UHGV virus genome: UHGV-0309737
Strand: one strand, 5' to 3'
DNA: 36,494 nucleotides
DNA from: a virus
Below the pieces are notes generated by a model. The model was not told the DNA's origin. It searched no databases and saw only the letters and a program-made list of their open reading frames with translations. Shown here one piece after another: positions 19,140 through 35,110 of this stretch. How positions within the stretch are numbered: the stretch's first letter is position 1; each line of letters opens with the position of its first letter. The translations under genes and the position numbers were made by a program.

Positions 19140-19161
19140 CATGTCACGATAAGCCAATCGA

Positions 19162-19190
19162 AGCCAGCCTGACCCGCTGGCTTTTTTATT
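19162..19190 (+). terminator. Intrinsic terminator after scaffold gene
   Basis: GCCAGC-ctgacccg-GCTGGC + TTTTTT. Confidence 0.75.
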
Positions 19191-19192: not shown

Positions 19193-19210
19193 GTCGGGAT
19201 TCCGACCGCG
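19193..19210. promoter_or_regulatory. Conserved palindromic late element copy 1 (GTCGGGATTCCGACCGCG)
   Basis: one of four copies of GTC(A/G)GGATTCCGACC; 148 nt upstream of capsid ATG. Confidence 0.6.
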
Positions 19211-19357
19211 CACCTCGCTAACAATCATCCCACAACCAGCCAGGCGGGGACGCCGGATAACTGAATTTTCCCGCAATGCGCCAGCGCCAACCGCATTGTG
19301 CTGATTTGGGCCGGAAATACCGACAACCCGCAGGCGATACTTTCTGGAGTGATTGTT

Positions 19358-20269
19358 ATGTCATTTGATACCGCTAAGAACATGATCACCGCTGCGTTTA
19401 TCCAGCAGTTCCATGATTCTTTCGAAATTGCCGCACAGCAGAAGGATTCCCGCCTGCAAGGTGCTGTTTACGACCGCGGCAACATCACCGGCGCGTCATT
19501 CACCATCAACGATATGGGTACCATCGAAATGACCCAGATCACCGAGCGTTTCGGTGATACCGTCTGGGATCTGCCTGATGCCGGCACCCGTAATGCGCTG
19601 ATGGCCGACTATGGCGTATTCGTGCCGGTGGAAAAGCGCGACCTGCGCAAACTGCTGGCTGACCCGCAGGGGCCATATTTGCAGCTGACGCTGGCCGCAT
19701 CCAACCGCAAAAAAGACGACGTTATCTATCGTGCGCTGCTGGATGACGTTCTGCGCAAAACCTCCAACACTGGCGCGTACGCTCCGGTTGCTCTCCCCGC
19801 ATCGCAGAAAATCGTTGCTGGCGGTACCGGGATGACCAAAGCGAAGCTGATCGCCGCAAAAGCCATGTTCCGTCGTAACGAGTGTGACGAGCAGAACGGG
19901 GAAGAGCTGTATATCACCTACAACGCCGACATGCTGACCCAAATCCTCAGCGATACCACGCTGACCAGCGCCGACTTTATGGCAGTGAAAATGCTGCAGG
20001 AAGGCGCAGTGTCTGGTAACTGGCTGGGCTTTAAGTGGCTGGCCTATGAAAAACTGGATTCTGCTGAAGCAGGTGATCCAGCGGTCACCACCAAAACCGC
20101 GGTTGCCTGGTGTAAAACCGCTGTGCATTTCGGTACCGGCGAAGAGTACAACGTCGATATCGGCCCGCGCCGCGATAAAAACAACACCATTCAGATTTCC
20201 GTCGATGCGTCCTATGGCGCAGGCCGCGCAGCGGAAAACAAAGTCGTCGCCATCGATTTCGTAGCATAA
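19358..20269 (+). CDS. Major capsid protein, T7 gp10-like
   Basis: 303 aa from ATG 19358 with GGAG SD; size/position and C-terminal similarity to gp10; followed by strong terminator as T7 T-phi. Confidence 0.7.
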   Translation: MSFDTAKNMITAAFIQQFHDSFEIAAQQKDSRLQGAVYDRGNITGASFTINDMGTIEMTQITERFGDTVWDLPDAGTRNALMADYGVFVPVEKRDLRKLLADPQGPYLQLTLAASNRKKDDVIYRALLDDVLRKTSNTGAYAPVALPASQKIVAGGTGMTKAKLIAAKAMFRRNECDEQNGEELYITYNADMLTQILSDTTLTSADFMAVKMLQEGAVSGNWLGFKWLAYEKLDSAEAGDPAVTTKTAVAWCKTAVHFGTGEEYNVDIGPRRDKNNTIQISVDASYGAGRAAENKVVAIDFVA

Positions 20270-20285
20270 AGCCGCTGGTGCCTTT

Positions 20286-20313
20286 GCCGGGGGATATCTC
20301 CCGGCCTTTTTTC
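20286..20313 (+). terminator. Strong intrinsic terminator after capsid gene (T-phi analogue)
   Basis: CCGGGGG-atat-CTCCCGG then CCTTTTTT. Confidence 0.85.
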
Positions 20314-20328
20314 ATCTGAGGTAAGGCT

Positions 20329-20892
20329 ATGGCTGACAGTATTTCTATCTGCTCTAACGCACTGCTGGCACTCGGTGCTCACCCGATTAACAGTTTCGAC
20401 GAAAACACCGATCACGCCCGCCTGTGCTCAAACCTTTATCCCACCGTGCGCAATAAGCTGCTGCGCGCACATCCGTGGAACTGCGTTGTAAAACGTGTGG
20501 TTCTCTCTCCTGTCAGTACAGCGCCGGTATTCGGTTTCCGCTTTCAGTTTGCATTACCCGGTGATCTTCTCCGCGTTCTGTCCGTTGGGGAACCTTGCGA
20601 CGATATTCCGTACCGCGTCGAAGGCAACCGGCTACTGGCGAACGTGCAGGTACTGAAGCTGCGTTATGTGTTCCGCAACGAAGACGAATCCACCTGGGAT
20701 GCCGCGCTCGTTGATGTGGCAGAAATGATGATGCAGGCAAAGCTGGCCTATGCCGTCACCGGCTCTACCAGTCTGCGCGATAGTCTCGCCCAGGAATCGC
20801 TGGTACTGCTGAAGCAGGCGAAGGCGGTGGATGGTCAGGAAGACCCGCCGGAAGAGCTTGGCGGCTATCCAACGTACGAATCGAGGTTCTGA
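20329..20892 (+). CDS. Tail tubular protein A (gp11-like)
   Basis: 187 aa, position between capsid and gp12-like. Confidence 0.55.
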   Translation: MADSISICSNALLALGAHPINSFDENTDHARLCSNLYPTVRNKLLRAHPWNCVVKRVVLSPVSTAPVFGFRFQFALPGDLLRVLSVGEPCDDIPYRVEGNRLLANVQVLKLRYVFRNEDESTWDAALVDVAEMMMQAKLAYAVTGSTSLRDSLAQESLVLLKQAKAVDGQEDPPEELGGYPTYESRF

Positions 20893-20893
20893 C

Positions 20894-22888
20894 ATGCGCG
20901 CCAATCTGATTAAAACCAACTTCACCGCCGGAGAAATTTCCCCGCGTCTAATGGGGCGTGTTGATATCGATCGCTATGCAAACGGCGCGAAGACGCTGGA
21001 AAATAGCGTGGTCGTGGTGCAGGGCGGGGTAATGCGTCGCCCCGGCTCGCAGTTCGTAGCGGCCACAAAGTACGGCGATAAAAAATCCCGCCTCATTCCG
21101 TACGTTTTCAATCGCACGCAGGCGTACATTCTGGAGTTTGGCGACGGCTATCTGCGAATTTACCAGGATGGTAAGCAACTGGTGAACGACGATAACACGC
21201 CGTACGAAATCGCCAGCCCGTACACCTCTGACATGCTGCCATCGGTAAATTACGTACAGGGCGCTGATACCATGTTTCTGGTGCATCAGTCCGTTAAACC
21301 GTACCGCCTGCAGCGACGCGGGCAAACCGATTGGGTACTGGAACCCGCGCCGTTTATCGTTGAACCCTTCGACGAAGTGCGAGACACGCCGCAGAAATGG
21401 TGCAAGCCATCGGTGAAAGAATTCGTCGGCTCGGAAATAACGCTGACCCTGAGCGATGACGAACCGCCAGAAGATAGCGAAGACCCGCCGCCGTTTACTG
21501 GTGATGGTTGGGTGCCTGAAGATGTGGGCTCGTACGTCAGGATTAACAGCGGTCTGGTGCTGATTAAGAGCGTAACCAGTGCGCAGGTGGCCATCGGTAC
21601 CATTCGCACCGATTTAAGCGCAACGCAGGCGGCATCGCCGGGCGCATGGACTCGCGAGGATTCCGTCTGGACGGATGAATTTGGATACCCGGGCGCGGTA
21701 ACACTTTACCAGCAGCGGCTGGTTCTGGCCGGTTCGCCGCGGTACCCGCAAACTATCTGGTGGAGTGAGTCGGGCGTATACCTCTCTTTCGAACTGGGAA
21801 CCGACGACGACGACGCGATCAGCTTTACGCTGTCTTCTGACCAGCTCAACCCGATTGTGCACCTCGCGCAGATGAATACGCTAATTGCGCTGACGTACGG
21901 CGGCGAGTTCACCATTACCGCCGGCAACGATGCGGCGATTACGCCTACCAATATTTCAGTAAAGAATCCCAGCCCGTACGGATGCAATGGGATCCGCCCG
22001 GTGCGTGTCGGTACCGAAATTATGTTCGTCCAGCGTTCTGGCCGTAAGCTCTACGCTGTCGCCTATGACCCCGACAGCTATGTAGCCTACTCGGCCAACG
22101 ATATGACCGTACTGGCGGAACACATCACAGAAGGCGGCGTGATCGATATGGCGTATCAGCAGCAACCTGATGCGTTTACCTGGCTGGTTCGCAATGATGG
22201 CGTAATGGTGACGATGGCTATCGATCGGGCGCAGAACGTTGTCGCGTGGTCACGGCAGATCACCAACGGTGCGTTTGAGTCCGTAGCGACTATTCCCTCA
22301 GCGACTGACGATGTGGTGTACGCCATTGTGCGCCGTACGGTCAACGGCCAGACCGTTCGCTATGTCGAAATGTTCAGTAACGCCCTGTACACCGATGCAG
22401 CCGTGACGGGCTCCAGCGATACTGGCGCAACGACATGGGGTGGCCTGTCGCACCTCGAAGGCGAGACCGTCGATATTGTTGCAGACGGTTCTGTGATGCC
22501 GCAGGCGGTCGTATCATCCGGCCAAATCACGCTATCGCGTAAAGCCTACAAAGTAGAAATCGGCCTGCACTTCGAAACGACCATTACCACTCTGACGCCT
22601 GAAGTCGCTACATCAGAAGGTACCACGCAGAATACCCGCAAGCGCACCAGTGAAGTCACTATGCGTTTCCTCCAAACCACTGGCGCCGAGTGCAATGGCC
22701 AGGTGATCCCGTTCCGCACGTTCGGGCCAAAAATCCTCAACCAGCCGGCGCCGTTGTTCACCGGCGATCACTACTGGGGAAAACTAGGCTGGGAGCGCGG
22801 AGAAGACACGCTGACTATTCAGCAGCGCCAGCCGCTGCCGTTCCACCTTCTCGCCATTGTCATCGTATTTACCAGCAACGGGGGCTAA
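20894..22888 (+). CDS. Tail tubular protein B (gp12-like)
   Basis: 664 aa from ATG 20894; N-terminal NFTAGEISPRL... parallels T7 gp12 NLKGGISQQP... Confidence 0.7.
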   Translation: MRANLIKTNFTAGEISPRLMGRVDIDRYANGAKTLENSVVVVQGGVMRRPGSQFVAATKYGDKKSRLIPYVFNRTQAYILEFGDGYLRIYQDGKQLVNDDNTPYEIASPYTSDMLPSVNYVQGADTMFLVHQSVKPYRLQRRGQTDWVLEPAPFIVEPFDEVRDTPQKWCKPSVKEFVGSEITLTLSDDEPPEDSEDPPPFTGDGWVPEDVGSYVRINSGLVLIKSVTSAQVAIGTIRTDLSATQAASPGAWTREDSVWTDEFGYPGAVTLYQQRLVLAGSPRYPQTIWWSESGVYLSFELGTDDDDAISFTLSSDQLNPIVHLAQMNTLIALTYGGEFTITAGNDAAITPTNISVKNPSPYGCNGIRPVRVGTEIMFVQRSGRKLYAVAYDPDSYVAYSANDMTVLAEHITEGGVIDMAYQQQPDAFTWLVRNDGVMVTMAIDRAQNVVAWSRQITNGAFESVATIPSATDDVVYAIVRRTVNGQTVRYVEMFSNALYTDAAVTGSSDTGATTWGGLSHLEGETVDIVADGSVMPQAVVSSGQITLSRKAYKVEIGLHFETTITTLTPEVATSEGTTQNTRKRTSEVTMRFLQTTGAECNGQVIPFRTFGPKILNQPAPLFTGDHYWGKLGWERGEDTLTIQQRQPLPFHLLAIVIVFTSNGG

Positions 22889-23340
22889 TGATGATTCGTA
22901 ACGCCACTGCCGGGGATATCCCGGCGCTTATCGAGCTGGGAACCCGGATGTATCTCGAGTCCCGTTACTCGCAAAACTCGCCGTTTGATGCGGATAAATG
23001 CGCAGAGCTGGCGCAGAGCCTGATTTATTCGCCGTCTGGTTGTGTACTGGTCGCTGAAAAAGACGGGCAGGTGATCGGCTGGCTTGGCGGCGGTGTTGCC
23101 GAGCAATTTTTTTCCCGCCAGTTGATGGCCTTCGAGTATGGCTTATTTGTCGCGCCAGAACATCGCGGCGGTAGTGCCGGCCCGAGACTGGCCCGCGCGT
23201 TTATCGACTGGTCAAAAGAGCACGGCGCCGCCGTTATCAATATGGGGATCACCACTGGCGTGCACGCAGAACGCACTGGCCAGTTGTATTCGCGTCTCGG
23301 CCTGCAGCAAACAGGCCTGCTTTATTCGATGGAGGTTTAA
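22888..23340 (+). CDS. GNAT-family N-acetyltransferase in the gp13 slot
   Basis: 150 aa; IGWLGGGV...VAPEHRGGSAGPRLARAFIDWSKEHGA fits the GNAT acetyl-CoA binding motif. Confidence 0.6.
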   Translation: MMIRNATAGDIPALIELGTRMYLESRYSQNSPFDADKCAELAQSLIYSPSGCVLVAEKDGQVIGWLGGGVAEQFFSRQLMAFEYGLFVAPEHRGGSAGPRLARAFIDWSKEHGAAVINMGITTGVHAERTGQLYSRLGLQQTGLLYSMEV

Positions 23341-23342
23341 CG

Positions 23343-23831
23343 ATGTGCACTGGCGTAGAAATTGCCCTGGTGGCGTCCACTGTACTTGCCGCTGGCGGCG
23401 CAGCGTATAGCGGGCAGCAGCAGAAAAAAATGGCGAACTATCAGGCCGCTCAGGCGGAAGCCGATGCAGAGGCGAGCCAGAAAGCCGCAAGGGTGGAAGC
23501 CGACCGTATCCGTAAAGCCGGGCGAGAACAGGCCGCAGCGGCCAACGCTTCGCTGGCGGCGTCGGGCGTTGAAACCGGCGAAGGTACCGCGCTGCGCATT
23601 ACTTCGGGCATTACTGAAGACGCAGAACAGGACGCTTTCCAGACCATCCTCACTGGAAATAACCAGGGGGCCAGGCTCAATGCACAGGCTCAGGCCGACC
23701 GGATCAGCGGAAAGAATGCGGCGATGGCGGGAAACATCAGCGCCGGTAGCTCACTTTTGAGCGCAGGTGGGACGGCGTACAGCGGCTGGAAGTCTGCCAA
23801 GGCAGGTAAATACGGATTATACGCGGAGTAA
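23343..23831 (+). CDS. Internal virion protein B (gp14-like)
   Basis: MCTGVEIALVASTVLAAGGAAYSGQQQKKMANYQAAQ vs T7 gp14 MCWAAAIPIAISGAQAISGQNAQAKMIAAQTAA. Confidence 0.7.
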   Translation: MCTGVEIALVASTVLAAGGAAYSGQQQKKMANYQAAQAEADAEASQKAARVEADRIRKAGREQAAAANASLAASGVETGEGTALRITSGITEDAEQDAFQTILTGNNQGARLNAQAQADRISGKNAAMAGNISAGSSLLSAGGTAYSGWKSAKAGKYGLYAE

Positions 23832-23836
23832 ATATC

Positions 23837-25792
23837 GTGAAAATTCCAACAGGTAATTTTGGCAACGTTACGCCGCAGGCACAGCCAACACGCGTAGACG
23901 TAGTTAACGCAGGCGCAGTAGGTGCTGCTGTTAAGGGATTAGCGGATGACATTCATCAGCAGGCAGACGCTATTGTTAGAGCCAGAGCGGGCGAAGGACT
24001 TCTGGATTACCAGATAAAAATTAAAGATATAAACGAAAACATCAGGCAGGGCGTCGAAGACGGAACCATTAAAGCAGACCAGATTGATAATATTTATAAA
24101 ACAGCTGTATCAAAGCTGGAGAAACCAAATTTTGGAGGTCTTGATCTCGCAGGAATGGAAGTTGCGCAACGCGGCATCAAACGTTATGAGGCTGACGGCC
24201 ATGCTACGGCTCAGGGTCTATACCGTACAGCGTTAAAAATAGAAGCAAAAGATCAGGTCGATACTCAACTTGACCAATTGGGTAAGTTAACAAATTACCC
24301 AGATGCTGATATCGAAAAAATTAATGGTATGTCCGCGGCATTGGATACTCAAGGCCGTTTAGCTTATGGCGACCAATGGGCCAAAGTTCGGCAGAGTTGG
24401 ATAGACAAAAACTGGTTTAATCAGGCGCAACAACGCTTAATGTCTGCCCGTAATGATGGTTCTGCTCTCTCAGCTCTTAATAACGAATTGACTGGTGAAA
24501 AAGGTTTTTATGTCGATAAGCTCGACCCCGAGAAGCGTAATGCGCTTGTAAATCAGGCTATGGGGTATCAGGCTCGCATAGAGGCCAGAGCAATAGCTGC
24601 ACAAAACCATGCTGATATGTTGGCAATGCGGAGAGAGAACGCGGCTATGCATGCCAGTACCAGTATGCAAATGCGTATTGCTAACGGTGAAATTCCTACG
24701 GATCAGGATTGGAATAATTATTTAACTTCAGTATCGGGAACCAGTCAGGATGGTACCGCCCCGGTTCTGCGGTCAGCGATGTTGGAGACCCAGCGTCTTT
24801 ACAGCCTCCCTCCGGAGAAAGCACAAGCAGAAGTGGATAGCCTTGCGTTATCGCTGAAGAAAAACGGTGGCAGTGAAATTCAGTACAAAGTGCTTAATGC
24901 TGTACAAAGCAATATCGATCACCGCCGTACTCAGCTACAGAAAAATCCTCAGGCGGTTTTTGCAATGGATTCCGGTACGCCGCTGGAGCCGCTAAATCCC
25001 CAATCGGCATTACAACAGCCGGGCGATTGGGGGGCTGGATTAGTCCAACGACAGGCCAACTCTGACGCTATTACTCAGAAATATGGAGCCACAGCGGGAA
25101 AGAATCTGCTGACAACCGAAGAGCTAGGGAATGCGAAGGATGCCTACGAAAAAATGTCTCCCGATCAGCGGATCCAGTTTTGGCGAAATACTCAAGCCAG
25201 CAGCACGCCGGCGATCGCCTCACGTTTAGCTAGGGAGATTGGCGGCGATGCTTTGCAGGTTTCTGCTGTGGCCGGGCTTGCCAACAACCCAGCCGGGTAC
25301 AAAACCGCGCTGGCGGTGGAAAACGGTTCGCGGCTTTTAAATCCAATTGATGGAGCACCTAAAGTAAGACTGCCCGCAAGCTTTGATCTGGACGTAGCTG
25401 ATGCCATAAAAAAACAGTATCCCACCCTCAGCCCCGCGCAGGTACAACGTCTTATTCCGGTAGTAAGGGATTACCATATCGGTACAGGTGGGTCCCCCGA
25501 TAAGACACCAAAAGCTGAAGCATTACACGAAGTTATAGGCAAGCCTGTGAATGTTTACGGCAGCTATGCAATAGCCCCCGCGGGCACCGATGAAAACACC
25601 TTTATTGATGCCTTAAAAATAGGGGTCAACCGGTTGGGCGACAGCGCTCAGGATGTAAAAAATGGCCTAAGTCAGGGCGTGTACGGCTTTGTCTCGGATT
25701 CTGATGGTAATCAGGTGCTGATCAACGCTGCAACCCAACGCCGGGTTGTTGGAAAAGACGGGCGCCCGGTAGTGATCGAGGTGGGTAAATGA
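23837..25792 (+). CDS. Internal virion protein C (gp15-like)
   Basis: 651 aa, GTG start; position after gp14-like; A-rich, lower GC than neighbours. Confidence 0.5.
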   Translation: MKIPTGNFGNVTPQAQPTRVDVVNAGAVGAAVKGLADDIHQQADAIVRARAGEGLLDYQIKIKDINENIRQGVEDGTIKADQIDNIYKTAVSKLEKPNFGGLDLAGMEVAQRGIKRYEADGHATAQGLYRTALKIEAKDQVDTQLDQLGKLTNYPDADIEKINGMSAALDTQGRLAYGDQWAKVRQSWIDKNWFNQAQQRLMSARNDGSALSALNNELTGEKGFYVDKLDPEKRNALVNQAMGYQARIEARAIAAQNHADMLAMRRENAAMHASTSMQMRIANGEIPTDQDWNNYLTSVSGTSQDGTAPVLRSAMLETQRLYSLPPEKAQAEVDSLALSLKKNGGSEIQYKVLNAVQSNIDHRRTQLQKNPQAVFAMDSGTPLEPLNPQSALQQPGDWGAGLVQRQANSDAITQKYGATAGKNLLTTEELGNAKDAYEKMSPDQRIQFWRNTQASSTPAIASRLAREIGGDALQVSAVAGLANNPAGYKTALAVENGSRLLNPIDGAPKVRLPASFDLDVADAIKKQYPTLSPAQVQRLIPVVRDYHIGTGGSPDKTPKAEALHEVIGKPVNVYGSYAIAPAGTDENTFIDALKIGVNRLGDSAQDVKNGLSQGVYGFVSDSDGNQVLINAATQRRVVGKDGRPVVIEVGK

Positions 25793-27117
25793 GCATACTC
25801 TTTAATCCGGAGCTGGATAGTGCTCTTAACGCCAACGGTACCGAAAGCGTTAAAGATATTGATGCAGGATTGTTTCAAGGGGTTGGTCGAGGCGTTAGTA
25901 CTGGGTTTTCTAACGCAGGCACGTCACTACAGCGCATTGGCTTAACCACGCTCGGCCGCGGGCAGATGCAAGTCGCCGCAGCTCAGATGCAGGCTACAGC
26001 GAATATCACTGGTAACGAGGCCCTTAGTAATGCCGCTCAAGATGTTTTAAGTGCTCCTGAACCTACAGAGGACCAGTTACCACAGTACAAATCGTTCGAT
26101 AGCGATCAGGTGGGGGCGGTTGGTACCATTCTGGGTGGACTTGTTCAGCAATCGCCATCATTAGCATTAATGGCGGTAAACCCTGTGGCGGGCGTTTCCG
26201 TTGCTGGGGCGCAAGGGTACACGGAAGCTCACGCAGAAGGCGCGAGATTGGGGCTTACTGGTGAAGATCTGGAAGACTATTCAGCAGTTGGTGGGGCGGC
26301 TATGGCGGCTGGATCTGCCATTCCCGGCTTTACAGGCGTGGGTAAAGGTGCGGTTTTATACGGCTCACGCTTCCTTGCCGGCGGGGTGGTTAACAGTATC
26401 ACCGGTGAGGTCGATCGCTGGGGGCGCGCAGAAATTCTTGATAGCGCAGGTTTTCACGATCAGGCCAGACAGATGCGCCAGGCTGATGCCGCCAGCCGAG
26501 TTACTGAATTTGTGCTCGGTGGCGCGTTTGGGCTACTGGGTGGCGGTCACAGAACCGAAACAGGAAGGACTGGTGACTTAGAACGAGGGATAACCAGTAT
26601 TCATGAAGATGCAGCTACCGCTCACATTATTCATGATAATTACGTAACGGAAACTGCCCCGGGTCTCTCTGCTGATGCGAGAAGCGAGGCGGGGCATGTG
26701 GCGGCTATGGACTCCGCTATCGATTCCGTAAATAGCGGACGTGGCGTAGATGTTACAGATCACCTGACGGGTGATCGTACGTTTATCGTTCATGGCGATA
26801 TTGATGCAGGTAACGTTGCCCGCCAACAGTTGGCGGGTGATTCTTCGAAACGTATTGATGCCGTAGTGCAGGCAGCTGACCGGCAGGCAATACCTGAGAA
26901 AGTTAATAGCTATTCACCAGGCGTTTTAAGTGATGCAACCGATCAGCCTTTCCAGCTTCTACGTGAACAAATGGATGCTGTAGCAGAAAACCATCCGGAG
27001 CTTCGTGATCTCGTTGCACAGCACATTGATAACTTTGAAGCCGAACATACCACCGCACGTCGTAATGCAGAGCTATATGATGTAGCTGCTGCCTGCGCCC
27101 TTAAATTTGGATCCTGA
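25789..27117 (+). CDS. Internal virion protein D (gp16-like), N-terminal ORF
   Basis: 442 aa; no lytic transglycosylase motif seen. Confidence 0.45.
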   Translation: MSILFNPELDSALNANGTESVKDIDAGLFQGVGRGVSTGFSNAGTSLQRIGLTTLGRGQMQVAAAQMQATANITGNEALSNAAQDVLSAPEPTEDQLPQYKSFDSDQVGAVGTILGGLVQQSPSLALMAVNPVAGVSVAGAQGYTEAHAEGARLGLTGEDLEDYSAVGGAAMAAGSAIPGFTGVGKGAVLYGSRFLAGGVVNSITGEVDRWGRAEILDSAGFHDQARQMRQADAASRVTEFVLGGAFGLLGGGHRTETGRTGDLERGITSIHEDAATAHIIHDNYVTETAPGLSADARSEAGHVAAMDSAIDSVNSGRGVDVTDHLTGDRTFIVHGDIDAGNVARQQLAGDSSKRIDAVVQAADRQAIPEKVNSYSPGVLSDATDQPFQLLREQMDAVAENHPELRDLVAQHIDNFEAEHTTARRNAELYDVAAACALKFGS

Positions 27118-27119
27118 CT

Positions 27120-29618
27120 ATGAAACCACAATGTATACAGGCAGTAGAGGCACACCTTAGCGCTGTCAGTGGCAAGCCGGTTAAGCTTACGGCCGCGGCT
27201 ATTTCGCGTATCGATGAAAGAATGCATGAAGGTGCAAAAGTGCTGGCCCGCCGGGATCGCGCCTCCTGGCAATCAATGTCTCCTGATGAGCGTACGATTG
27301 CCATTGGTCAATGGGTGAGGGAACAAGAACAAGGGCAAGCAGACAGCCAGGCAAGGAGTAAAGTTCGCCAGCTTTCCGCTATTGTCGATGCAGCTAAAAG
27401 GCTTGATGCGATGGCGGGTGCCAGGCCAGACAAAGCAGGGAAATGGAGTAAATCTCTGATCGATGTACTGGAGGGCGTAGATAACACCTTGCGTGGAGCG
27501 GAGCAGGTCGCGGTAAGAGGATTCGGCGATATGCTAAAAGCGGCCAGAGTCGGGCCGTGGACGATGGATTTTGGCAATAAGCGCAGCGATGCTTTCTTTG
27601 CTGATGTCGTGCGCGAAATCTACGGTACCGATACAGGAAATGCTACCGCTAAAAGCTTTGCGCAAAAGTGGTCGGCCACCATGGACGGTTATCGCGAGGC
27701 CCGAAACCGGGCTGGTGGAACGGTAGGTAAACTGGATAATTACGCTCCACAATCCCATGATGCTACGGTTATGCAGCGGGTTGGTAAGCCCGCATGGGTT
27801 TCTTTTATGATGAAGAATCTCGATCGGGAGCAATATCTTAGTGAAACCGGCACTCGTCTCACGGATCCAGAACTTGAGAGCGTAGTGGGAAAAATGTACG
27901 ACTCCATCGTAACTGATGGCGCAAATAAAATTCAGCTTGATTTACAAGGATTGGCTGAGGGGGCGCCCAGCAGTTTTGGAAGCGCCAACATCGCGAGAAT
28001 GCTTAATAGCAGCCATAGAGAGATTCATTTACGAGATGCTGATGCCGTCATCGCTTATAACAATCAGTTCAGTGATCGCGCTCTGGGTGCGTCATTCTTT
28101 AGCCATCTAAACGGCGCCGCCAGAGATGTAGCGCTCATTAATGAGATGGGGCCAAACCCTGCGCTTACTTTCGCGACGTTAAAAGATACAGCAGCGAAGC
28201 GGGATAGCCAGATGCCTGGGGCCGTTTTTGAAGGCGATGGTAGTGTCAAAGGAGGAAACCGGGGAGCATTCGGCCCCGAGGCTTACTTTCGTCAAATAAT
28301 GCGTAATAACGCAGATTTCACCGATTTTGATCGCATTAGTAGCGCGTTAACTGCGTACCAGGCTGCAACAAAATTAACCAGCACAGGGCTACGCTCAGTT
28401 TTCCAGGACACGCCGGGTATGCTTCTGAATATGGCTGATGTGGGTCAGTTGCACAACATTGGCACTGTACTGCGTACAGCCTTCCGTCCAAAAGAAGCGG
28501 CTCAGTTCGGGATTGGTGCTGAAGTGGCGGTACGCGCTGCGCGTGAAGGTGCCGAAAGAATAATGGCACAGGGGCGTTTTAACCTGGCTAACGCCCTTAG
28601 TCGATACGCTCAGGCCACTATGAAATACACGTTGCTTGACGCCTGGACGAACGCGGCCCGGCGAGCGGGGCAGACCTCGCATGCACTGGCATTAGGTGAA
28701 TGGTCACATCTGCCTTGGAGTAAGCTGGATAGTAGCCAGCGCGGGCTATTGAATAATGCCGGTATCACTGAAGGTGATTGGCAGCACATCATGAGCGTCC
28801 CCCGCAAGAAACTACGCGGGCAAGATATACACGATGTGTCTGATGTATCTGCGTTAGGGCTTTCCCCCGATGAGACTATGCGCCTGCAATCTCAAATGAT
28901 GGGGTTTATCAGAATGGGCGGCGATATCGTTACTTCAGAGCATAACCTTACGGCACAAACATTAATGAGTGCTGGTGGGCGGACTAATGCCTTGACCAAA
29001 CAGGTAATGCTTTTTAAAAATGCTGGTGCGATACAGACCGCGCACATGTTGGATCGTCTTAGTCGTAAATCTGGCACAACCAAAGTTGGTTATGTTGCGG
29101 CGACGGCTGCACTATCCGCAAGCTTTGGTTATATGGCTCTGGTAGCTCAGGCGGTAACCAGCGGGCAGAATCCACCGCCACCAGATGATATACGAACCAT
29201 TGGTAAGGCTATGGCCGTAGCTGGTGGCTTTGCGATGGTTCAGGATCTGATTACCAGTATGTACGATGCTGTTAGTGGGGATAACAGTGGCCACAGTTCA
29301 AGTGCTGTACCCATTTTTGGTGATCTTGCAACGTTGGGTAAAATTGCCTTTACTGCCCCAATTGACCCACAGAAAGCCGGGTATATGGCTATCAAGTTTG
29401 GTCGCCAGCAAATTGCTCCGTTGAATTACTGGTATACAAAGGCGGCGGTTGATCATATGTTTTTCAACGATGCGGCCGAAGCGCTCAATCCAGGCTATCA
29501 GCGAAGGCTTAGAAAGTATGCTGATCAGAAAGGTCAACAGTATTTCTGGGATCCATCTGGAGACCTAGCGGCACCAGAAATGGGATACTATAAAAAAGAA
29601 TTCGAATTTGGTAATTAG
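27120..29618 (+). CDS. Internal virion protein D (gp16-like), C-terminal ORF
   Basis: 832 aa; with upstream ORF sums to ~T7 gp16 length; different frame, 2-nt gap. Confidence 0.5.
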   Translation: MKPQCIQAVEAHLSAVSGKPVKLTAAAISRIDERMHEGAKVLARRDRASWQSMSPDERTIAIGQWVREQEQGQADSQARSKVRQLSAIVDAAKRLDAMAGARPDKAGKWSKSLIDVLEGVDNTLRGAEQVAVRGFGDMLKAARVGPWTMDFGNKRSDAFFADVVREIYGTDTGNATAKSFAQKWSATMDGYREARNRAGGTVGKLDNYAPQSHDATVMQRVGKPAWVSFMMKNLDREQYLSETGTRLTDPELESVVGKMYDSIVTDGANKIQLDLQGLAEGAPSSFGSANIARMLNSSHREIHLRDADAVIAYNNQFSDRALGASFFSHLNGAARDVALINEMGPNPALTFATLKDTAAKRDSQMPGAVFEGDGSVKGGNRGAFGPEAYFRQIMRNNADFTDFDRISSALTAYQAATKLTSTGLRSVFQDTPGMLLNMADVGQLHNIGTVLRTAFRPKEAAQFGIGAEVAVRAAREGAERIMAQGRFNLANALSRYAQATMKYTLLDAWTNAARRAGQTSHALALGEWSHLPWSKLDSSQRGLLNNAGITEGDWQHIMSVPRKKLRGQDIHDVSDVSALGLSPDETMRLQSQMMGFIRMGGDIVTSEHNLTAQTLMSAGGRTNALTKQVMLFKNAGAIQTAHMLDRLSRKSGTTKVGYVAATAALSASFGYMALVAQAVTSGQNPPPPDDIRTIGKAMAVAGGFAMVQDLITSMYDAVSGDNSGHSSSAVPIFGDLATLGKIAFTAPIDPQKAGYMAIKFGRQQIAPLNYWYTKAAVDHMFFNDAAEALNPGYQRRLRKYADQKGQQYFWDPSGDLAAPEMGYYKKEFEFGN

Positions 29619-29632
29619 ATAAAGGGGGCGGT

Positions 29633-29926
29633 ATGCTAAATCCTCATACATTGAGAATTATCATCTGGTTTGTGTTTAGTATTGTTGGATGTATTTTATT
29701 TTTTATCGCTTATGGCCGCAGTCTTAAAAGGGCTTGCTCGTTTCTCCATGATGCAAAAGTAAGTTGCGATAAAATTAAAGAAAATAATAATTCTGGTGAT
29801 TATGTAGACGCACACCAAAGGTATAAAGTCTGGAAAAATGAAGTTGCTAGTATAAAACGGCAGCGAACATACTGCCTCTTAGCCACCCCTGGAATCCTGG
29901 CCATAATCGCCATGATTTTCTGGTGA
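29633..29926 (+). CDS. Small two-TM membrane protein, AT-rich accessory gene
   Basis: 97 aa; TM at 8-27 and 78-97; SD AAGGGGG; GC much lower than flanks. Confidence 0.5.
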   Translation: MLNPHTLRIIIWFVFSIVGCILFFIAYGRSLKRACSFLHDAKVSCDKIKENNNSGDYVDAHQRYKVWKNEVASIKRQRTYCLLATPGILAIIAMIFW

Positions 29927-29929
29927 TAT

Positions 29930-29950
29930 GCATAGCCCACCGTGGTGGGC
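29930..29950. other. Hairpin between convergent accessory genes
   Basis: AGCCCACC-gt-GGTGGGCT; same stem as the 5322 terminator; no T-run. Confidence 0.5.
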
Positions 29951-30622
29951 TTAACGTTTACCTTTGTACGAATCCCAACAATTTTTGCACCATGACATCA
30001 ACCCATCACGGTTGTTTGCGTTTTTGTAATAGCTTGTGCGTTTACGGCGGATCTCACAAATTGGACACCATTTAGTGTGCTGTGTGTTTTTTGGACCATC
30101 CAGGCAGTGTGCGCACCAAGTTGTATATCCATCAGCGTGTTTACTAGATTTTCTATATTTATCTAAGGGCAGGTTTCTACTGCATCGCGTACAGACCTTA
30201 CGCCCATCAGCAACCTGAACGGTATTTTCAATTAACGTAGGTGAAATCGTGGAAGAGGGGAGCGGGTTAACGACTTTTTCAACTCTTTGAGGCTGAATAA
30301 AGGTCTGCTGCTCCGTGTGCAAAGACTCGACAGATTTCTGCTCAGAAACCTGTTTGTAATAATCGGATATAACAGCTTTGTCATATTCAGAATGACTTTC
30401 GTTATTTAAGGTATTAGGTTTCGTATACTGAGTCGAAGCGCTGTCAATCACTTGTGTTTGCTGAATACGGATTTCCCCATCTTCAGTTTTAACAGTTTTG
30501 TTTCTGGTTATAACGGTTCGATTTGTGATTTTTGTTCTGTTCTGATTGATAACGAACAAGATCACAACAACTACGCCAACAACTACCCAGAAAATTTCCA
30601 TAAAATCACTCTTAGCATTCAA
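29951..30622 (-). CDS. Membrane-anchored protein with C-terminal tandem CxxC-x20-CxxC zinc-ribbon repeats
   Basis: 223 aa; N-terminal TM IFWVVVGVVVVILFVI; repeats CTRCSRNLPLDKYRKSSKHADGYTTWCAHC and CPICEIRRKRTSYYKNANNRDGLMSWCKNC; AT-rich. Confidence 0.5.
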   Translation of the reverse strand: MNAKSDFMEIFWVVVGVVVVILFVINQNRTKITNRTVITRNKTVKTEDGEIRIQQTQVIDSASTQYTKPNTLNNESHSEYDKAVISDYYKQVSEQKSVESLHTEQQTFIQPQRVEKVVNPLPSSTISPTLIENTVQVADGRKVCTRCSRNLPLDKYRKSSKHADGYTTWCAHCLDGPKNTQHTKWCPICEIRRKRTSYYKNANNRDGLMSWCKNCWDSYKGKR

Positions 30623-30685
30623 TTCACTCAGTAAAGATATGATAGAGCAGCATTTTCCGAAATCCTGATATTTTTACAGCATTAA

Positions 30686-30700
30686 GTCAGGATTCCGACC
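30686..30700. promoter_or_regulatory. Conserved palindromic late element copy 2 (GTCAGGATTCCGACC)
   Basis: 62 nt upstream of small terminase ATG. Confidence 0.6.
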
Positions 30701-30718
30701 TCTAGCCCAATACATCAT

Positions 30719-30747
30719 AGCCCTATGGATAACCACGGGGCTTTTTT
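30719..30747 (+). terminator. Terminator-like hairpin + T-run immediately abutting small-terminase ATG
   Basis: AGCCC-tatggataacca-CGGGGCT TTTTT ATG. Confidence 0.45.
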
Positions 30748-31095
30748 ATGCATTCAGATTACAAAACTCGCCTTACTGCTCTTAGCGATAAGCTCACCGA
30801 TGTAGTTCTGGAAGAAGCCGATCCGGACAACTGGCCGGGGGCAGGGAAGGAAATCACAAAGCACACCAAACAGGAACGCGGCGATCGGTACTGGCATAAG
30901 AAGAATGCGGCCGCATCGCTAACCTTGTTGGTAAAAGTCCATTCACTTATTGGTATGCATACTCGCGGAGGCACGCCGAAGAGCGGCGGAGAAGATCCGG
31001 ACGATGAAGCGTTCCAGTTAGGTCAGCAGGTAGCAGCTGCTGAGCGTAAAGCGCTGGAAGTCATCGAGAGGATACAGCACAAAGGCAAAAAATGA
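30748..31095 (+). CDS. Terminase small subunit (gp18-like), putative
   Basis: 115 aa directly upstream of and ATGA-overlapping large terminase. Confidence 0.5.
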   Translation: MHSDYKTRLTALSDKLTDVVLEEADPDNWPGAGKEITKHTKQERGDRYWHKKNAAASLTLLVKVHSLIGMHTRGGTPKSGGEDPDDEAFQLGQQVAAAERKALEVIERIQHKGKK

Positions 31096-32702
31096 TTTCG
31101 TTCCTGGCCTTCTTTTTGATGTGGGCGGAACGGATGAACTGGGATGTGCCGGACTGCCACTATAAAGCCTGCCACTGGCTGGAGCATCGCGGAAACCTCG
31201 CGGTGCTTCGCTGTTTTCGTGGCTTTGGTAAATCAACTATCCTGGGCGTTTATAACGCCTGGCGGTATTACTGCGATCGCCAGTACCGTATTCTGCATCA
31301 GTCGGAATCCGATACAACCGCCAGAAAGACCAGCCGCGATACGCAAAACGTTCTGCGTAATCACCCACTGACGAAAGGTATGTTGCCGGACGGCATCGGT
31401 ACCATCGAGCAATGGTGGGTAAACGGCGCGCTGGATATGCGTAACGCCAGCATGTTCGCAAAAGGCATTCTGTCGAACGTTACCGGCGCCCGTGCCAACG
31501 AGTGCCAGAATGATGACGTGGAGGTGCCCGGCAATATCCAGACTCCGGAGGCTCGCGAAAAACTGCGCTATCGCCTAAGCGAGCAGACGCATATTTTGAT
31601 ACCCGGAGGCCGGAAATTGTTTATCGGTACGCCGCATACCCACGATAGTCTTTACGACGAGAAAGAAGCAGAGGGCGCTGATTGCCTGACGATAAAGCTA
31701 TTCGATAAAGAGCACCGCGTCGAAGCGAAGAAGGCAACCAAAAAACGATACCGGATACCGTTCCGCCCAGAATATGTTTTTGTGGGGATCCACAAGGCCG
31801 CCCGGTTATTGATTGAGGGTACTGATTATCGATTGACGGAAGACGGTGTAGAGTTCGCAGCGCCGCCTGAAACTGTCGTGGATTTTTATGCCGGCTGCGC
31901 GTGGCCAGGCCGTTTCGATCATGATGAATTACTGCTGCGCCGTAAAGAATGCCGCACCGTCAACGAATGGGATAGCCAGTACCAGTTGCACAGTAAACCG
32001 GTTGGCGAGGTTCGTCTCGATCCCGACCGTATCCGCGAGTACAACGTCCAGCCTGAAATTCGCTATGCGAACCGTTCCTGCTCGATGTGGCTGGGACAGA
32101 CGCAAATCGTCGGCGCTGTCGCCTGGTGGGATGTGGCCACCGGCAAAGTTAAGGCTGATGCTTCGGCATTTTCCCTTATTTTCACCGACGCCCGCGGGCA
32201 TCTTTACTGGCATGTTTGCCAGGGGTTAACTGGCGAGCTGGCAGAATTTGGCTACAACGACAAAATCACCGGCGGTCAGGTGATGCAGATTAAAGAACTG
32301 GTGCTGAAGTACCAGATCCCGCTGGTCTGCGTAGAGGTAAACGGCCCCGGCAGTTTCGCCGGGAAGTTGCTTATTCAGGCGCTGAAGGGTACCGGCTGCG
32401 GCGTGCGGGAAGAGTTCAGCGTCACCAACAAACAAAAGCGCATCCTCGATGCTTTCGAAGCGCCGCTGTCGTCCCGGTTCCTGTGGGCGCATACCGACGT
32501 GCTCGACGGCCCAATGTACGACCAGATGCGGGATTTCAACCCGGCGTTAACTAACCAGCCAGACGACTTTATCGATTCGGGATCCGGTGCGATCAGTGCT
32601 ACGCCTGTGCGCATCGGGAAATTAGTCGGGATTCCGACCGCGCAGGCGAGGGAGCATTGGCAGCCATACGATGGCGACATTTCGGTCGCTGTAGATTACT
32701 AG
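31092..32702 (+). CDS. Terminase large subunit (T7 gp19-like)
   Basis: 536 aa; Walker A CFRGFGKST; size/position. Confidence 0.8.
   Translation: MISFLAFFLMWAERMNWDVPDCHYKACHWLEHRGNLAVLRCFRGFGKSTILGVYNAWRYYCDRQYRILHQSESDTTARKTSRDTQNVLRNHPLTKGMLPDGIGTIEQWWVNGALDMRNASMFAKGILSNVTGARANECQNDDVEVPGNIQTPEAREKLRYRLSEQTHILIPGGRKLFIGTPHTHDSLYDEKEAEGADCLTIKLFDKEHRVEAKKATKKRYRIPFRPEYVFVGIHKAARLLIEGTDYRLTEDGVEFAAPPETVVDFYAGCAWPGRFDHDELLLRRKECRTVNEWDSQYQLHSKPVGEVRLDPDRIREYNVQPEIRYANRSCSMWLGQTQIVGAVAWWDVATGKVKADASAFSLIFTDARGHLYWHVCQGLTGELAEFGYNDKITGGQVMQIKELVLKYQIPLVCVEVNGPGSFAGKLLIQALKGTGCGVREEFSVTNKQKRILDAFEAPLSSRFLWAHTDVLDGPMYDQMRDFNPALTNQPDDFIDSGSGAISATPVRIGKLVGIPTAQAREHWQPYDGDISVAVDY
32625..32642. promoter_or_regulatory. 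Conserved palindromic late element copy 3 (GTCGGGATTCCGACCGCG) inside terminase 3' end
   Basis: 78 nt upstream of tailspike ATG. Confidence 0.6.
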
Positions 32703-32719
32703 CCGCCGGAGCGCCACCT

Positions 32720-34888
32720 ATGTCGGTACCTAACCAAATTCCTTATAACATCTATACCGCCAATGGACAGACGACCGTTTTTACTTACCAGTTCTATATC
32801 ATCAGTGCCAGTGATTTAGAGGTAAGCATCAACGGTTCCGTTGTTACCAGCGGCTATACCGTATCCGGCGTTGGTAACAAAGACGGCGGTGATATTACAT
32901 TCCTTACTCCGCCGGCAAACGGCGCAGTGGTTATGCTCGAACGTGTGGTACCGACATTTCGTCTCACCGATTATCAGGACAATGGCGATTTGCTTGCGGA
33001 TACCGTCAATAAGGATTTTGACCGTATCTGGATGGCGATTCAACGCGCGTTTATCGATCTGGGGCTTTCACTTACTCGCCCACTTTTTGGCGGGCCGTAT
33101 AACGCACAGGGCTACCGCATCGCTAATCTTGCTGATCCAGTCGATAAACAGGATGCCGCAACAAAGAGCTACGTTGATGCAACTGGTGCAGCCAACCTTC
33201 GCTATGCGCTGCGTTTCCCTGAAGTTGTCGAACCCATGCCGCGAGTAGCTGTTCGGGCTAATTCCCTTCAGGGGTATAACGCCCAGGGTAAACCAGTACC
33301 CGTTTTCTCGATGACCGATACCGCCGACCTTGCATTACAACTTGCATCCTTAACCGGTGCGAGTTTGATTGGAGGTCTGGGATTTATCACACCTGAAATG
33401 CATGGGGCGCTGGGGGATGGAAATACCGATGACCGCGTAGCAATTCAAGCTGCGATCGATAAGGCCAGCGAAAACTACATTAACGGGACTGGGCCAACAA
33501 CGGTATGGATGGGTTACAAATACCTGGTATCTCTGAACCCAAACTCACCACTGTTACCCGGTGAAGTCGCTGCGGGTCGCGCGGTGTTCAATGTGCCAGA
33601 CGGGGTGACAATCACCGGTGGCGGGCACATAGCGCTAGTTGACACCTACTCGGGTACGTCTTCCGGCGCAGTATTTACTAACTGGAGTGGCACCGCGAAT
33701 AACTGCATCATCAGAGGTATTTCAATCGATTGCCGCTATGGTATAGCCCCCGGTCGTGGGATATCAGGTATCAACATTGTCGATTCTGATAATGTTCTGA
33801 TTGATGGCGTGATAGTCATTAACGCATCGGGCGGGGGTATTTACCTGCGCCGTTGCTACGGTAACGCAGCCGATAGTAACTACGGATGCTCAAACAGCAA
33901 AATCATTAACTGTCATGTTAATAACGTTTATTACATCGGGATCCAGTGCGAGCGCCCGCGAGGCGTTCTCATTAATGGCAATACTATTACAAACACCAAA
34001 AATAACGGTATTGATATCGAGGGTGAAAACTCCAGCACAACCAATTCTGGTTATGCAACCAACGTTGTAATCACATCCAATATTCTGGTGGATGTTAATA
34101 ACGGTATTTTTATCGAATCCTGTGGCAATACTGTTGTTAACAGCAACAACATTACTACGGCGGGGATCGGGATTGTCTTTAACCGTATCAGTTCTGCGTC
34201 GTTCTTCAATACTGTTATAGGCAACGAAATCACCGGGACGTCATTAACATCGGGCTGGGGGATGCGCTTTATCAACCAGATCGGGCGGTGCACGATTGCC
34301 AATAATACAATCAGGGTTAAAAAGTACGGTATGCATTTTGCCGATCGTATCGACCGTTGCAATATCGGGTCAAACACCTTTGAGTCTATCGGTGAAACGA
34401 TACTCCATTTCGATAAAGTACCATCAGGTGTATCTATGCTTCGTTCCCGAATTGCGGAGCAATTTTACCTTGGCGGGCAGACTAGAGGTGTCCCGTATTC
34501 AACATCTCCGCGTGGATGCCCTTCAAACTACCCGAATCGAATGGCATCAACCGTTCGTTATACCCCCGTTCTATTTTCAGACCTTGCGGGGCCGGGGGAA
34601 GACAATATGGTGTACCGTACCGCCGTGCTTACGTTGAATAGCTCTTGGAATGCTTACGCCAGGTACGGAAACACCACCGCCGGTTATACCGACATAAATG
34701 GTAATTTTGGTAATGCGGGGGATTACCTTGAAATTAATGGAGTTGTGTATCAAATTTATGCGGTGGCAACCAGCGTCACGACAATTACTAAGTGGGATGG
34801 AACGGCGTATGTCGCTGGTAATTTTGTTGGTGATTTCACGGATGCTTTCACAGTTAAAACACACAGACCTGTATGGGGAACTTTATAA
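32720..34888 (+). CDS. Tailspike/tail fiber: T7 gp17-like N-terminal adaptor + pectate-lyase-like beta-helix (putative capsule depolymerase)
   Basis: 722 aa from ATG 32720; ...AQGYRIANLADPVDKQDAATKSYVDA vs T7 gp17 GRRIVNLANAVDDRDAVPFGQLKT; repeated NxxIxxN/G PbH1 repeats. Confidence 0.85.
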   Translation: MSVPNQIPYNIYTANGQTTVFTYQFYIISASDLEVSINGSVVTSGYTVSGVGNKDGGDITFLTPPANGAVVMLERVVPTFRLTDYQDNGDLLADTVNKDFDRIWMAIQRAFIDLGLSLTRPLFGGPYNAQGYRIANLADPVDKQDAATKSYVDATGAANLRYALRFPEVVEPMPRVAVRANSLQGYNAQGKPVPVFSMTDTADLALQLASLTGASLIGGLGFITPEMHGALGDGNTDDRVAIQAAIDKASENYINGTGPTTVWMGYKYLVSLNPNSPLLPGEVAAGRAVFNVPDGVTITGGGHIALVDTYSGTSSGAVFTNWSGTANNCIIRGISIDCRYGIAPGRGISGINIVDSDNVLIDGVIVINASGGGIYLRRCYGNAADSNYGCSNSKIINCHVNNVYYIGIQCERPRGVLINGNTITNTKNNGIDIEGENSSTTNSGYATNVVITSNILVDVNNGIFIESCGNTVVNSNNITTAGIGIVFNRISSASFFNTVIGNEITGTSLTSGWGMRFINQIGRCTIANNTIRVKKYGMHFADRIDRCNIGSNTFESIGETILHFDKVPSGVSMLRSRIAEQFYLGGQTRGVPYSTSPRGCPSNYPNRMASTVRYTPVLFSDLAGPGEDNMVYRTAVLTLNSSWNAYARYGNTTAGYTDINGNFGNAGDYLEINGVVYQIYAVATSVTTITKWDGTAYVAGNFVGDFTDAFTVKTHRPVWGTL

Positions 34889-35034
34889 TGGAAATTGGCG
34901 ACGTAACGCAGCTTACTGATGAAGAGATTAATGATTACCTGAATAACTACGTCTGGTATGGCATTTCCGCAGACGACAGGCTTCGTCTGGGTGAAGAAAT
35001 GAGACGACGCGAAGCACTTAAGGAGCAGAACTAA
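34888..35034 (+). CDS. Small ORF (48 aa) after tailspike
   Basis: ATG overlaps tailspike stop (TAATG). Confidence 0.3.
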   Translation: MEIGDVTQLTDEEINDYLNNYVWYGISADDRLRLGEEMRRREALKEQN

Positions 35035-35039
35035 AAGAA

Positions 35040-35060
35040 GGTCAGGATTCCGACCTGACC
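35040..35060. promoter_or_regulatory. Conserved palindromic late element copy 4 (GGTCAGGATTCCGACCTGACC)
   Basis: 71 nt upstream of holin ATG; extended 7-bp stem. Confidence 0.6.
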
Positions 35061-35064
35061 AACG

Positions 35065-35110
35065 CCTTACCCTCACATCACTACACATAGTGATCCCCGT
35101 GGGGGTAAGG
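35065..35110 (+). promoter_or_regulatory. Nested RNA hairpin sequestering holin SD
   Basis: CCTTACCC(35065-72) pairs GGGTAAGG(35103-10, the SD); inner ATCACT-acacat-AGTGAT. Confidence 0.55.

Follow-up and report, generated by a model that had tools for sequence, protein, structure and literature searches.

In this paper we analyse a palindromic sequence of 15 nucleotides (nt), hereafter called the box, that recurs ahead of the late genes of the virus genome UHGV-0309737, of which a stretch of 36,494 nt (hereafter the window) was studied over its whole length, together with a gene for a protein of 98 amino acids (aa) with a Cro/XRE-like helix-turn-helix (HTH), which is the candidate reader of the box. 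The window is a prophage of ~36 kb. The integrase gene (163-1209) and the leftward early genes lie at its left end, and they are followed by a rightward lambdoid block with Cro-like, replication, NinB-like and Ref-like genes, the last gene of which is the HTH gene (15441-15737, + strand). From 15.7 kb onwards the window has a late region of the podovirus type, with the order portal, scaffold and capsid; tail tube; internal virion proteins including a transglycosylase; small and large terminase subunits (terS, terL); tailspike; and then holin and lysozyme.

Results

Five boxes ahead of the late genes

Exact copies of the box, GTCRGGATTCCGACC, occur four times in the window, at 19193, 30686, 32625 and 35041, all on the + strand, and no match to GTCRGGATTCCGACC is present in 100 dinucleotide-preserving shuffles of the window. 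These four copies had been noted in a preliminary description of this DNA and all of them are real, but the count is now five sites, with a degenerate fifth copy at 15703. This copy, box E (GTCGGGAAACTGACC, 15703-15717, + strand), overlaps the 3' end of the open reading frame (ORF) of the HTH protein and starts 63 nt before the ATG (15766) of the first late gene, which encodes a protein of 147 aa; in relatives an exact or near-exact box is found at the same place. Box A (GTCGGGATTCCGACC, 19193-19207, + strand) starts 166 nt before the ATG of the capsid gene (19359) and is preceded by an intrinsic-terminator-like hairpin with a T run (19160-19184, + strand), which ends the portal-scaffold unit and is present in many, though not all, relatives. 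Box B (GTCAGGATTCCGACC, 30686-30700, + strand) starts 62 nt before the ATG of terS (30748). Box C, with the same sequence as box A (GTCGGGATTCCGACC, 32625-32639, + strand), lies within the 3' end of terL (31092-32702), where it encodes V-G-I-P-T, and starts 95 nt before the ATG of the tailspike gene (32720). Box D, with the same sequence as box B (GTCAGGATTCCGACC, 35041-35055, + strand), stands ahead of the holin and lysis genes, 71 nt from its start to the ATG of the holin gene (35112). The placement reported before, ahead of the capsid, terS, tailspike and holin genes with one copy inside the terL ORF, is thus correct gene by gene, while the range of distances, given as 60-150 nt, is 62-166 nt. 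The two extended subtypes are also present as described, with TTRGTCGGGATTCCGACCGCGCA at 19190 and 32622 and ARGTCAGGATTCCGACCT at 30684 and 35039.

The five sites stand out clearly from the rest of the window. With a weight matrix built from the relatives, they score 28-45 bits (28 for box E, 45 for box A, 33 for box B and 41 for box D), while the rest of the window scores at most 8 bits and the maximum over 20 shuffled sequences is 9.1 bits. Moreover, the symmetric pattern GTCRG-N4-CYGAC has five matches in the window, which are the five boxes, with 0.07 matches expected.

The box is an inverted repeat of 14 base pairs (bp), GTCRG-N4-CYGAC, followed by a C. The half-site is GTCRG, and its A variant is found on the left at boxes B and D and on the right (CTGAC) at box E, while one relative has the A-variant half-site on both sides of the box. 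The central two bases vary freely (TT, AA, AT, AC, TC), even among the sites of one phage. The distance between the half-site centres is 9 bp; the operators of phage 434 are 14 bp long, and the half-site spacing of the box is comparable. It is noted that the symmetric degeneracy of the half-sites together with the free central bases fits a site for a dimeric HTH protein, as had been suggested from the inverted repeat itself.

Hexamers at a fixed distance from the boxes

At all five sites of the window the box is followed, on the + strand, by 12 nt of spacer and then by a hexamer of the form NANNNT, an arrangement with no match in 100 dinucleotide-preserving shuffles. The hexamers are CACAAT at site E (15730-15735), AACAAT at site A (19220-19225), CATCAT at site B (30713-30718), GAGCAT at site C (32652-32657), the final T of which is the third base of a His codon of terL, and TACCCT at site D (35068-35073), all on the + strand. 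Among 56 non-redundant sites from 93 related loci, NANNNT is found exactly 12 nt past the box in 53, while at all other offsets between 4 and 23 nt the fraction is 0-12%; a few E sites of relatives have a spacer of 11 nt. Examples of the hexamer in the family are AACAAT, CATCAT, GAACAT, TACCCT, CACACT, GATACT and AATCAT. By contrast with its length, the sequence of the 12-nt spacer is conserved in none of the positional classes.

The A at position 2 and the T at position 6 are the strongest determinants of the −10 element recognised by sigma-70, and such a hexamer points to the host sigma-70 holoenzyme. If the hexamers are taken as −10 elements, the transcripts are predicted to start at about 15742 (site E), 19232 (site A), 30725 (site B), 32664 (site C) and 35080 (site D), and with the hexamer at −12 to −7 the box would occupy −39 to −25, with the dyad centre at about −32.5. 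The hexamers of the window match TATAAT at 3-4 of the 6 positions. There is no enrichment of a TG extension ahead of the hexamer and thus no extended −10, and no −35 element can be read from the sequence at spacers of 16-18 nt, where the box gives GATTCC, GGATTC and RGGATT, which match 0-2 of the 6 positions of TTGACA. With no −35, no extended −10 and weak hexamers, the promoters would be unlikely to fire unaided. In the region of 17-36.5 kb consensus sigma-70 promoters are under-represented, with 8 present versus 17.3 expected. The host sigma-54, sigma-E, sigma-32 and sigma-28 were also considered as readers, and their consensus sequences do not fit.

Conservation of the boxes in relatives

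A scan of viral contigs by exact pattern gave more than 118 loci, mostly on prophage-like contigs of ~36 kb, in which the same five positional classes recur, namely ahead of the homolog of the 147-aa gene, ahead of the capsid gene, ahead of terS, ahead of the holin gene and inside the 3' end of terL. The box of the capsid class in relatives usually stands just past a terminator, and the 15-mer is retained without change in relatives from GC-rich sequence contexts.

Two tests of the conservation are free of ascertainment by the motif, with loci picked by similarity of the terL protein in one and by similarity of the HTH protein in the other. Among the loci picked by terL, the exact box is present in 58 of 60 distinct terL 3' tails. 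In these 60 tails the synonymous diversity of the five box codons is 0.00-0.03, to be compared with 0.45-0.70 for the neighbouring Gly, Ala, Thr, Pro, Val and Arg codons, and the His codon that gives the T of the hexamer is always CAT, while for the His eight positions downstream 19 CAC and 25 CAT are found. Among the loci picked by the HTH protein, the 260 nt that precede the capsid gene are unalignable before ATTTG-GTCGGG and are conserved from there onward through the box, the hexamer and the leader; in the loci picked by the HTH protein alone the boxes are restricted to the gene strand. Selection acts on the DNA sequence of the box itself.

Among annotated relatives the closest is a prophage of E. 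coli 23GD11002 (92% identity over 59% of the query), in which the same five sites are present. The box is absent from the ~14 kb of E. coli chromosome that flank this prophage. In a scan of 596 Gb of genome sequence, almost all of the matches listed (at least 120) are single, scattered occurrences in unrelated taxa, as by chance. The box is not a common chromosomal repeat. A comparison of the late region with 50,697 phage records by megablast gave no match, and the relatives were found solely through protein search.

A more distant relative is Yersinia phage YeP5, which is inducible and short-tailed (PMC6548840). Both its replication module (PolA, primase) and its repressor differ from those of the window, yet it has four boxes with the same N12-NANNNT layout, one of them exact and the other three reading GTCRGGAAACCGAAC. 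Note also that APSE and YeP4 have only early genes in common.

The 98-aa HTH protein

The 98-aa HTH protein is the only non-structural protein of the window that is conserved in YeP5 and in the Alcaligenes phage Piluca. Its homolog in YeP5 has 51% identity and is again encoded just ahead of the first box. In all 22 loci that have about 1 kb or more of upstream DNA, a homolog with 28-100% identity is encoded 600-1450 nt upstream of the portal gene, and in the same 22 of 22 loci a box lies between the homolog and the late genes, so that the co-conservation of box and HTH gene that was looked for in related prophages is upheld. In the GC-rich relatives, which keep the box and have neither the 147-aa gene nor the 74-aa gene, the HTH protein has 28-52% identity and a distance of 3-13 nt separates its stop codon from the box. 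We also observe that some distant HTH homologs (P0047, P0050) end in …VGIPT…, which is the translation of GTCGGGATTCCGACC, so that in distant lineages, too, the HTH ORF and the box overlap at the 3' end of the ORF.

The predicted recognition helix, xKSxxxGWKxG, is kept down to 28% overall identity, which matches the near-invariance of the box. Its residues K36 and S37 would be expected to touch GTCRG. The protein has a helical fold of the Cro/CI type in the AlphaFold model, with a predicted local distance difference test (pLDDT) score of 87-92 over residues 11-70, and its best Foldseek matches are P22 c2, C.BclI, SinR, HipB and 434 Cro, with a probability of ~1 and target-normalised TM-scores of 0.55-0.72. 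At the level of sequence the match to Pfam HTH_3 is 16.8 bits, versus a gathering cut-off of 23, and an E value of at most 0.01 is reached in 9 of 39 family members. Neither the HTH protein of the window nor the 38 other family members match Mor, Ogr_Delta, Q-family or Phage_CII models, only weak generic HTH models being hit. The family has no Pfam model, NCBIfam has no family for the HTH protein or for the 147-aa, 74-aa, 112-aa and 228-aa proteins, and a sequence search of the PDB with the HTH protein gave nothing significant. The family is nonetheless large, with at least 1,263 clusters at 50% identity (E ≤ 0.001), and in GenBank phages it is annotated only as 'hypothetical protein'. The protein has one conserved Cys. 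From Klebsiella and Raoultella, HTH proteins with 99% identity to that of the window are recorded. Upstream of the HTH gene are the NinB-like and Ref-like genes and downstream of it are virion genes, with no restriction-modification genes in its neighbourhood.

Two readers had been put forward before, the 98-aa protein and the 147-aa protein; the former is co-conserved with the box, while the latter is absent from distant relatives that keep the box and is thus discarded. A 112-aa 'transcriptional regulator' (13590-13928) was also considered as reader, and it is not conserved along with the box. An operator of the CI/Cro kind does not fit either, with no box-like sequence in the immunity region (6182-6286) and with a different repressor accompanying the same box in YeP5.

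Leaders downstream of the boxes and other features

Between the predicted start at site A and the ATG of the capsid gene lies a 5' leader of ~125 nt (19232-19358, + strand), which is structured and conserved down to 51% capsid identity among the loci picked by the HTH protein. RNAalifold gives 23 pairs for this leader, of which 7 show double changes that compensate each other, and a GCCGG-GAAA-CCGAY hairpin is part of the predicted structure. A box-like sequence within it (~19309-19323) was considered as a further box, and the conserved RNA hairpin explains it better. Rfam has no family matching in the window, the capsid leader included. The capsid leader is a candidate for a new cis-regulatory RNA that would act on capsid expression. 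Past the capsid gene there is a terminator-like hairpin (20286-20305, + strand).

At site B the hexamer abuts the 5' arm of a hairpin followed by a U run (AGCCC…GGGGCTTTTTT; 30713-30750), which ends at the ATG of terS and holds the likely Shine-Dalgarno sequence. Transcripts from site B would miss the 5' arm, while read-through RNA would fold into a terminator-like hairpin that masks the Shine-Dalgarno sequence. Similar arrangements of hairpin, U run and ATG are seen in Piluca and in Acinetobacter phage TPWB-05. In the holin leader (35064-35111), CTTACCCT, which includes the hexamer TACCCT, is complementary to the Shine-Dalgarno region GGGGTAAG. This pairing is kept in 16 diverse relatives via G-U changes, with no double compensatory change. 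We therefore put it forward as a suggestion; if the pairing is real, only transcripts from site D would translate holin.

Site C lies within a segment of ~28 codons at the C-terminus of terL (32600-32702; …SATPVRIGKLVGIPTAQAREHWQPYDGDISV…). The terL of YeP5 (34900-34969) is without this segment and reads …GAIGQTAVDY*, and YeP5 is without a separate tail-fibre promoter. The site C promoter thus looks like an in-frame cassette that has been gained or lost in the coding sequence.

In Piluca and TPWB-05 a different, non-palindromic repeat, (A/T)CACCCAACAAA, is observed at analogous places, that is, ahead of the first late gene, inside the scaffold gene ahead of capsid, and ahead of the tail, terS and holin genes. 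Its positions are 6, 19458, 22690 and 24199 in Piluca (L121) and, on the minus strand, 25755, 22547, 20861, 11949, 8451 and 3476 in TPWB-05 (L322). The HTH homolog of these two phages is longer (~135 aa) and its recognition helix has diverged.

An ORF of 223 aa on the minus strand (29951-30622) separates the virion genes from terS and lies directly upstream of box B. It resembles a moron, and YeP5 has a gene with 41% identity to it in the corresponding place; no function was found for it.

Discussion

The box is a real, strongly conserved regulatory element, and most likely it is a late-promoter box that is read by a new family of Cro/XRE-like activators. The idea that a small HTH protein reads a late promoter element specific to the phage, which was put forward in the preliminary description, is strengthened by the fixed 12-nt spacing, by the synonymous constraint in terL and by the abrupt edge of conservation at the box. 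Neither the box, on either strand, nor the protein family was found in a relevant paper, in agreement with the earlier remark that the system had not been described, and a keyword search of the literature on late promoters of related phages gave nothing relevant; promoters are not discussed in the paper on YeP4-6 (PMC6548840).

Proposed mechanism

Based on these data, we propose that the box is the upstream element of five activator-dependent late promoters for the host sigma-70 RNA polymerase, which would be switched on by a dimer of the HTH protein, a proposal that we regard as probable, at a moderate level of confidence. The HTH protein would be expressed from its gene at the end of the rightward early block, and a dimer would then bind on each box, with one subunit per GTCRG half-site, and would recruit or stabilise the sigma-70 holoenzyme, leading to initiation ~7 nt past the hexamer. 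Five units are expected to arise in this way. The unit from site E would comprise the 147-aa and 74-aa genes, portal and scaffold and would end at the terminator at 19160-19184; that from site A would comprise the capsid gene and the hairpin at 20286-20305, with probable read-through into the tail and internal virion genes; that from site B would comprise terS and terL; that from site C, the tailspike gene; and that from site D, the holin and lysis genes.

Some points weigh against this proposal. Small proteins of the Cro/XRE type are more often repressors, and the label of the family in PHROGs is 'transcriptional repressor', with no evidence attached to it. Piluca and TPWB-05 have an HTH homolog and no GTCGG box, and thus the link between HTH protein and box is not universal in the wider family. 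Three loci picked by the HTH protein (L317, L318, L320) have no box in the short stretch at hand. It should also be noted that we infer the −10 role of the hexamer from its letters and position, and that with this assignment the dyad at −32.5 would cover DNA that is normally bound by sigma region 4. With respect to the latter point, two geometries may be considered. In one, which resembles that of lambda CII, the offset of a half-turn from the class II position would leave room for the dimer on the face of the DNA opposite to sigma region 4. In the other, the dimer would displace region 4 in the manner of MotA or PhoB.

Comparison with known systems

Among known systems phage Mu comes closest, as a system that works alike and not as one of which the present system is a member. 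The late promoters of Mu (Plys, PI, PP and Pmom) possess −10 hexamers, no −35 and an imperfect dyad bound by the activator C (PMC2582627; bioRxiv 10.1101/2025.05.02.651988), the dyad being 16 bp long and centred at −43.5 (PMC2582627). The likeness lies in a temperate phage with dispersed late promoters and a small phage HTH activator working with host sigma-70, the role of activator being the one proposed here. By contrast, the dyad here is 14 bp long and would be centred at about −32.5, about one helical turn closer to the −10, and while C is a tetramer of the Mor/C family, the 98-aa protein is Cro/XRE-like in its fold and carries no signature of Mor/C.

Lambda CII, of ~97 aa and with an HTH motif, activates PRE, PI and PaQ, which are without a good −35, from half-sites that straddle the −35; it is a tetramer that binds direct repeats, TTGC-N6-TTGC, at promoters of lysogeny. 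The present protein is alike in size, and a centre at −32.5 would also permit activator and sigma region 4 to be on opposite faces; it differs in the inverted repeat, in the late lytic genes and in having no match to Phage_CII. In the T4 MotA box, the Pho boxes bound by PhoB and the P1 Lpa promoters, a box replaces the −35 ~10-13 bp upstream of the −10, which is alike in that a specific box stands at a fixed distance in place of the −35. However, MotA needs AsiA and has a non-palindromic box, PhoB binds direct repeats, the P1 late operator is at about −22 and none of these has a Cro/XRE fold, whereas here the site is a palindrome and the protein Cro/XRE-like. The controller (C) proteins C.BclI, C.AhdI, C.Kpn2I and C.EcoT38IS are small dimers of the Cro/XRE type with palindromic boxes over the −35 and can activate, and controller proteins are among the best structural matches of the 98-aa protein; they autoregulate one operon beside restriction-modification genes, whereas here there are five phage late promoters. 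P2 Ogr and P4 Delta are zinc-finger activators (Ogr_Delta) with a TGT-N12-ACA site at about −55, and differ from the present system in family, with no Ogr_Delta match here, and in the sequence and position of the site.

Alternative explanations

The box could instead be the operator of a repressor, with the HTH protein or another factor shutting off or delaying late promoters that are constitutive. The habit of small Cro/XRE-type dimers and the PHROGs label stated above would agree with this, and a site over the −35 region could block the polymerase. However, leaving the box aside, what remains at these sites is not expected to fire unaided; an operator needs no base-pair-exact spacing to the −10 across deep divergence; and the end of the lytic early block, directly ahead of the targets, is the usual place of a late-activator gene. 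We thus consider repression unlikely. It is even less likely that the box acts as an RNA hairpin, that is, as a signal for processing, stabilisation or nut-like antitermination in long late transcripts. The G variant of the box does fold into a stem of 5 bp capped by a tetraloop (−7 kcal/mol), a compensated A-T pair is seen in one relative (GTCAGGATCCTGACC), and the similar GCCGG-GAAA-CCGAY hairpin is present in the capsid leader; but the tetraloop hairpin that was noted earlier does not carry over to the A variant (2 of the 4 exact copies and ~30% of the non-redundant family sites), in which an A-C mismatch stays uncompensated and the folding energy, −1.9 kcal/mol (z = −0.66), does not improve on that of shuffles; in addition, a closing pair is lost in the YeP5 variant GTCGGGAAACCGAAC. 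In contrast to the boxB stem of a nut site, the stem here is not maintained by compensatory changes across the copies of the box. Moreover, the DNA upstream of the box is not conserved, conservation setting in at its 5' edge; beyond the box the sites share nothing except the A and the T that occupy, at fixed spacing, the key positions of a sigma-70 −10; the co-conserved protein has a DNA-binding fold; and if the hexamer is a −10 the box would lie upstream of the transcript start.

The layout of the sites, with ~23 nt nearly identical in one orientation before capsid, tail-fibre and packaging genes and a terminator past the capsid gene, is that of the class III promoters of T7, as was pointed out before, and it could be taken as a sign that the boxes are promoters for a non-canonical polymerase or sigma-like factor of the phage itself, in the manner of T7 or N4. 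The resemblance of layout stands, but it does not extend to the enzyme. While T7 uses a single-subunit RNA polymerase and its promoters are conserved through +1, no ORF of the window has the size or similarity of such a polymerase, and the conservation here stops at the box and resumes only as NANNNT, a −10-type hexamer of the kind read by region 2 of the sigma-70 family. Seven of the nine ORFs of at least 440 aa on the gene strands match exonuclease, portal, tail, virion-protein, terL or tailspike PHROGs; a 462-aa ORF is 98% identical to the annotated replicative DNA helicase of a near-identical E. coli prophage; and the 651-aa protein (23837-25792), which has no PHROG match and could be thought of as a candidate, is encoded among the internal virion protein genes, as are the large proteins of this kind generally, and with 23-67% identity between relatives is observed to be the most variable virion gene of the family. 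With the 98-aa HTH protein being the sole regulator-sized gene that co-occurs with the box, a phage-encoded polymerase or sigma-like factor is a very improbable reader. Hardly to be expected, too, is that the HTH protein is a Q-like antiterminator that loads at the box, with the hexamer as a sigma-dependent pause element. Lambda Q binds DNA in its promoter, the Q gene is immediately upstream of the late promoter, and terminator-like hairpins are present in the late region; but Q acts at one constitutive −35/−10 late promoter with a downstream terminator, whereas here the DNA upstream of the box is unalignable between relatives and has no conserved −35/−10 promoter, the sites are five and dispersed, the terminators stand before site A and not after it, and the HTH protein has no Q-family signature. 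Nor do we give much weight to a host protein as the reader of the box. Its near-invariance across hosts of very different G+C content would fit such a protein, but the phage HTH protein has a recognition helix that is just as well conserved, its gene and the first box are physically linked in all loci checked, and neither the chance-like single matches among those listed in the genome scan nor the flanking E. coli chromosome gives the box a place in host DNA.

Finally, we note a further-reaching version of the proposed activation by the HTH dimer, which is offered as a tentative possibility and which we hold to be considerably less probable than not. In it the 98-aa protein may be the founding member of a large and unnamed family of phage late activators with the signature DWFRV...GWKxGxEPRH, the dimer being placed at about −32.5, either opposite sigma region 4 or taking over the recognition of the −35; together with the host polymerase it would, in these temperate podoviruses, play the part that the single-subunit RNA polymerase and the class III promoters have in T7.

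Significance

If the proposed activation of the late promoters is true, it would give the scheme of late-gene control, and the exact places of the promoters, for inducible prophages of ~36 kb that form a widespread family. Members are found in Klebsiella, Raoultella, E. coli, Citrobacter, Serratia, Pectobacterium and Yersinia, relatives exist in GC-rich sequence contexts, and no regulator or promoter is annotated in any of these prophages. A family of the Cro/XRE type would then join the short list of phage late activators, and a palindrome in the position of the −35, at a fixed 12 bp from the −10, would be informative on how sigma region 4 and an activator share promoter DNA. For annotation, the box provides a sharp sequence marker of the late operons of these prophages, and the pair of HTH protein and box could serve as a compact orthogonal expression switch.

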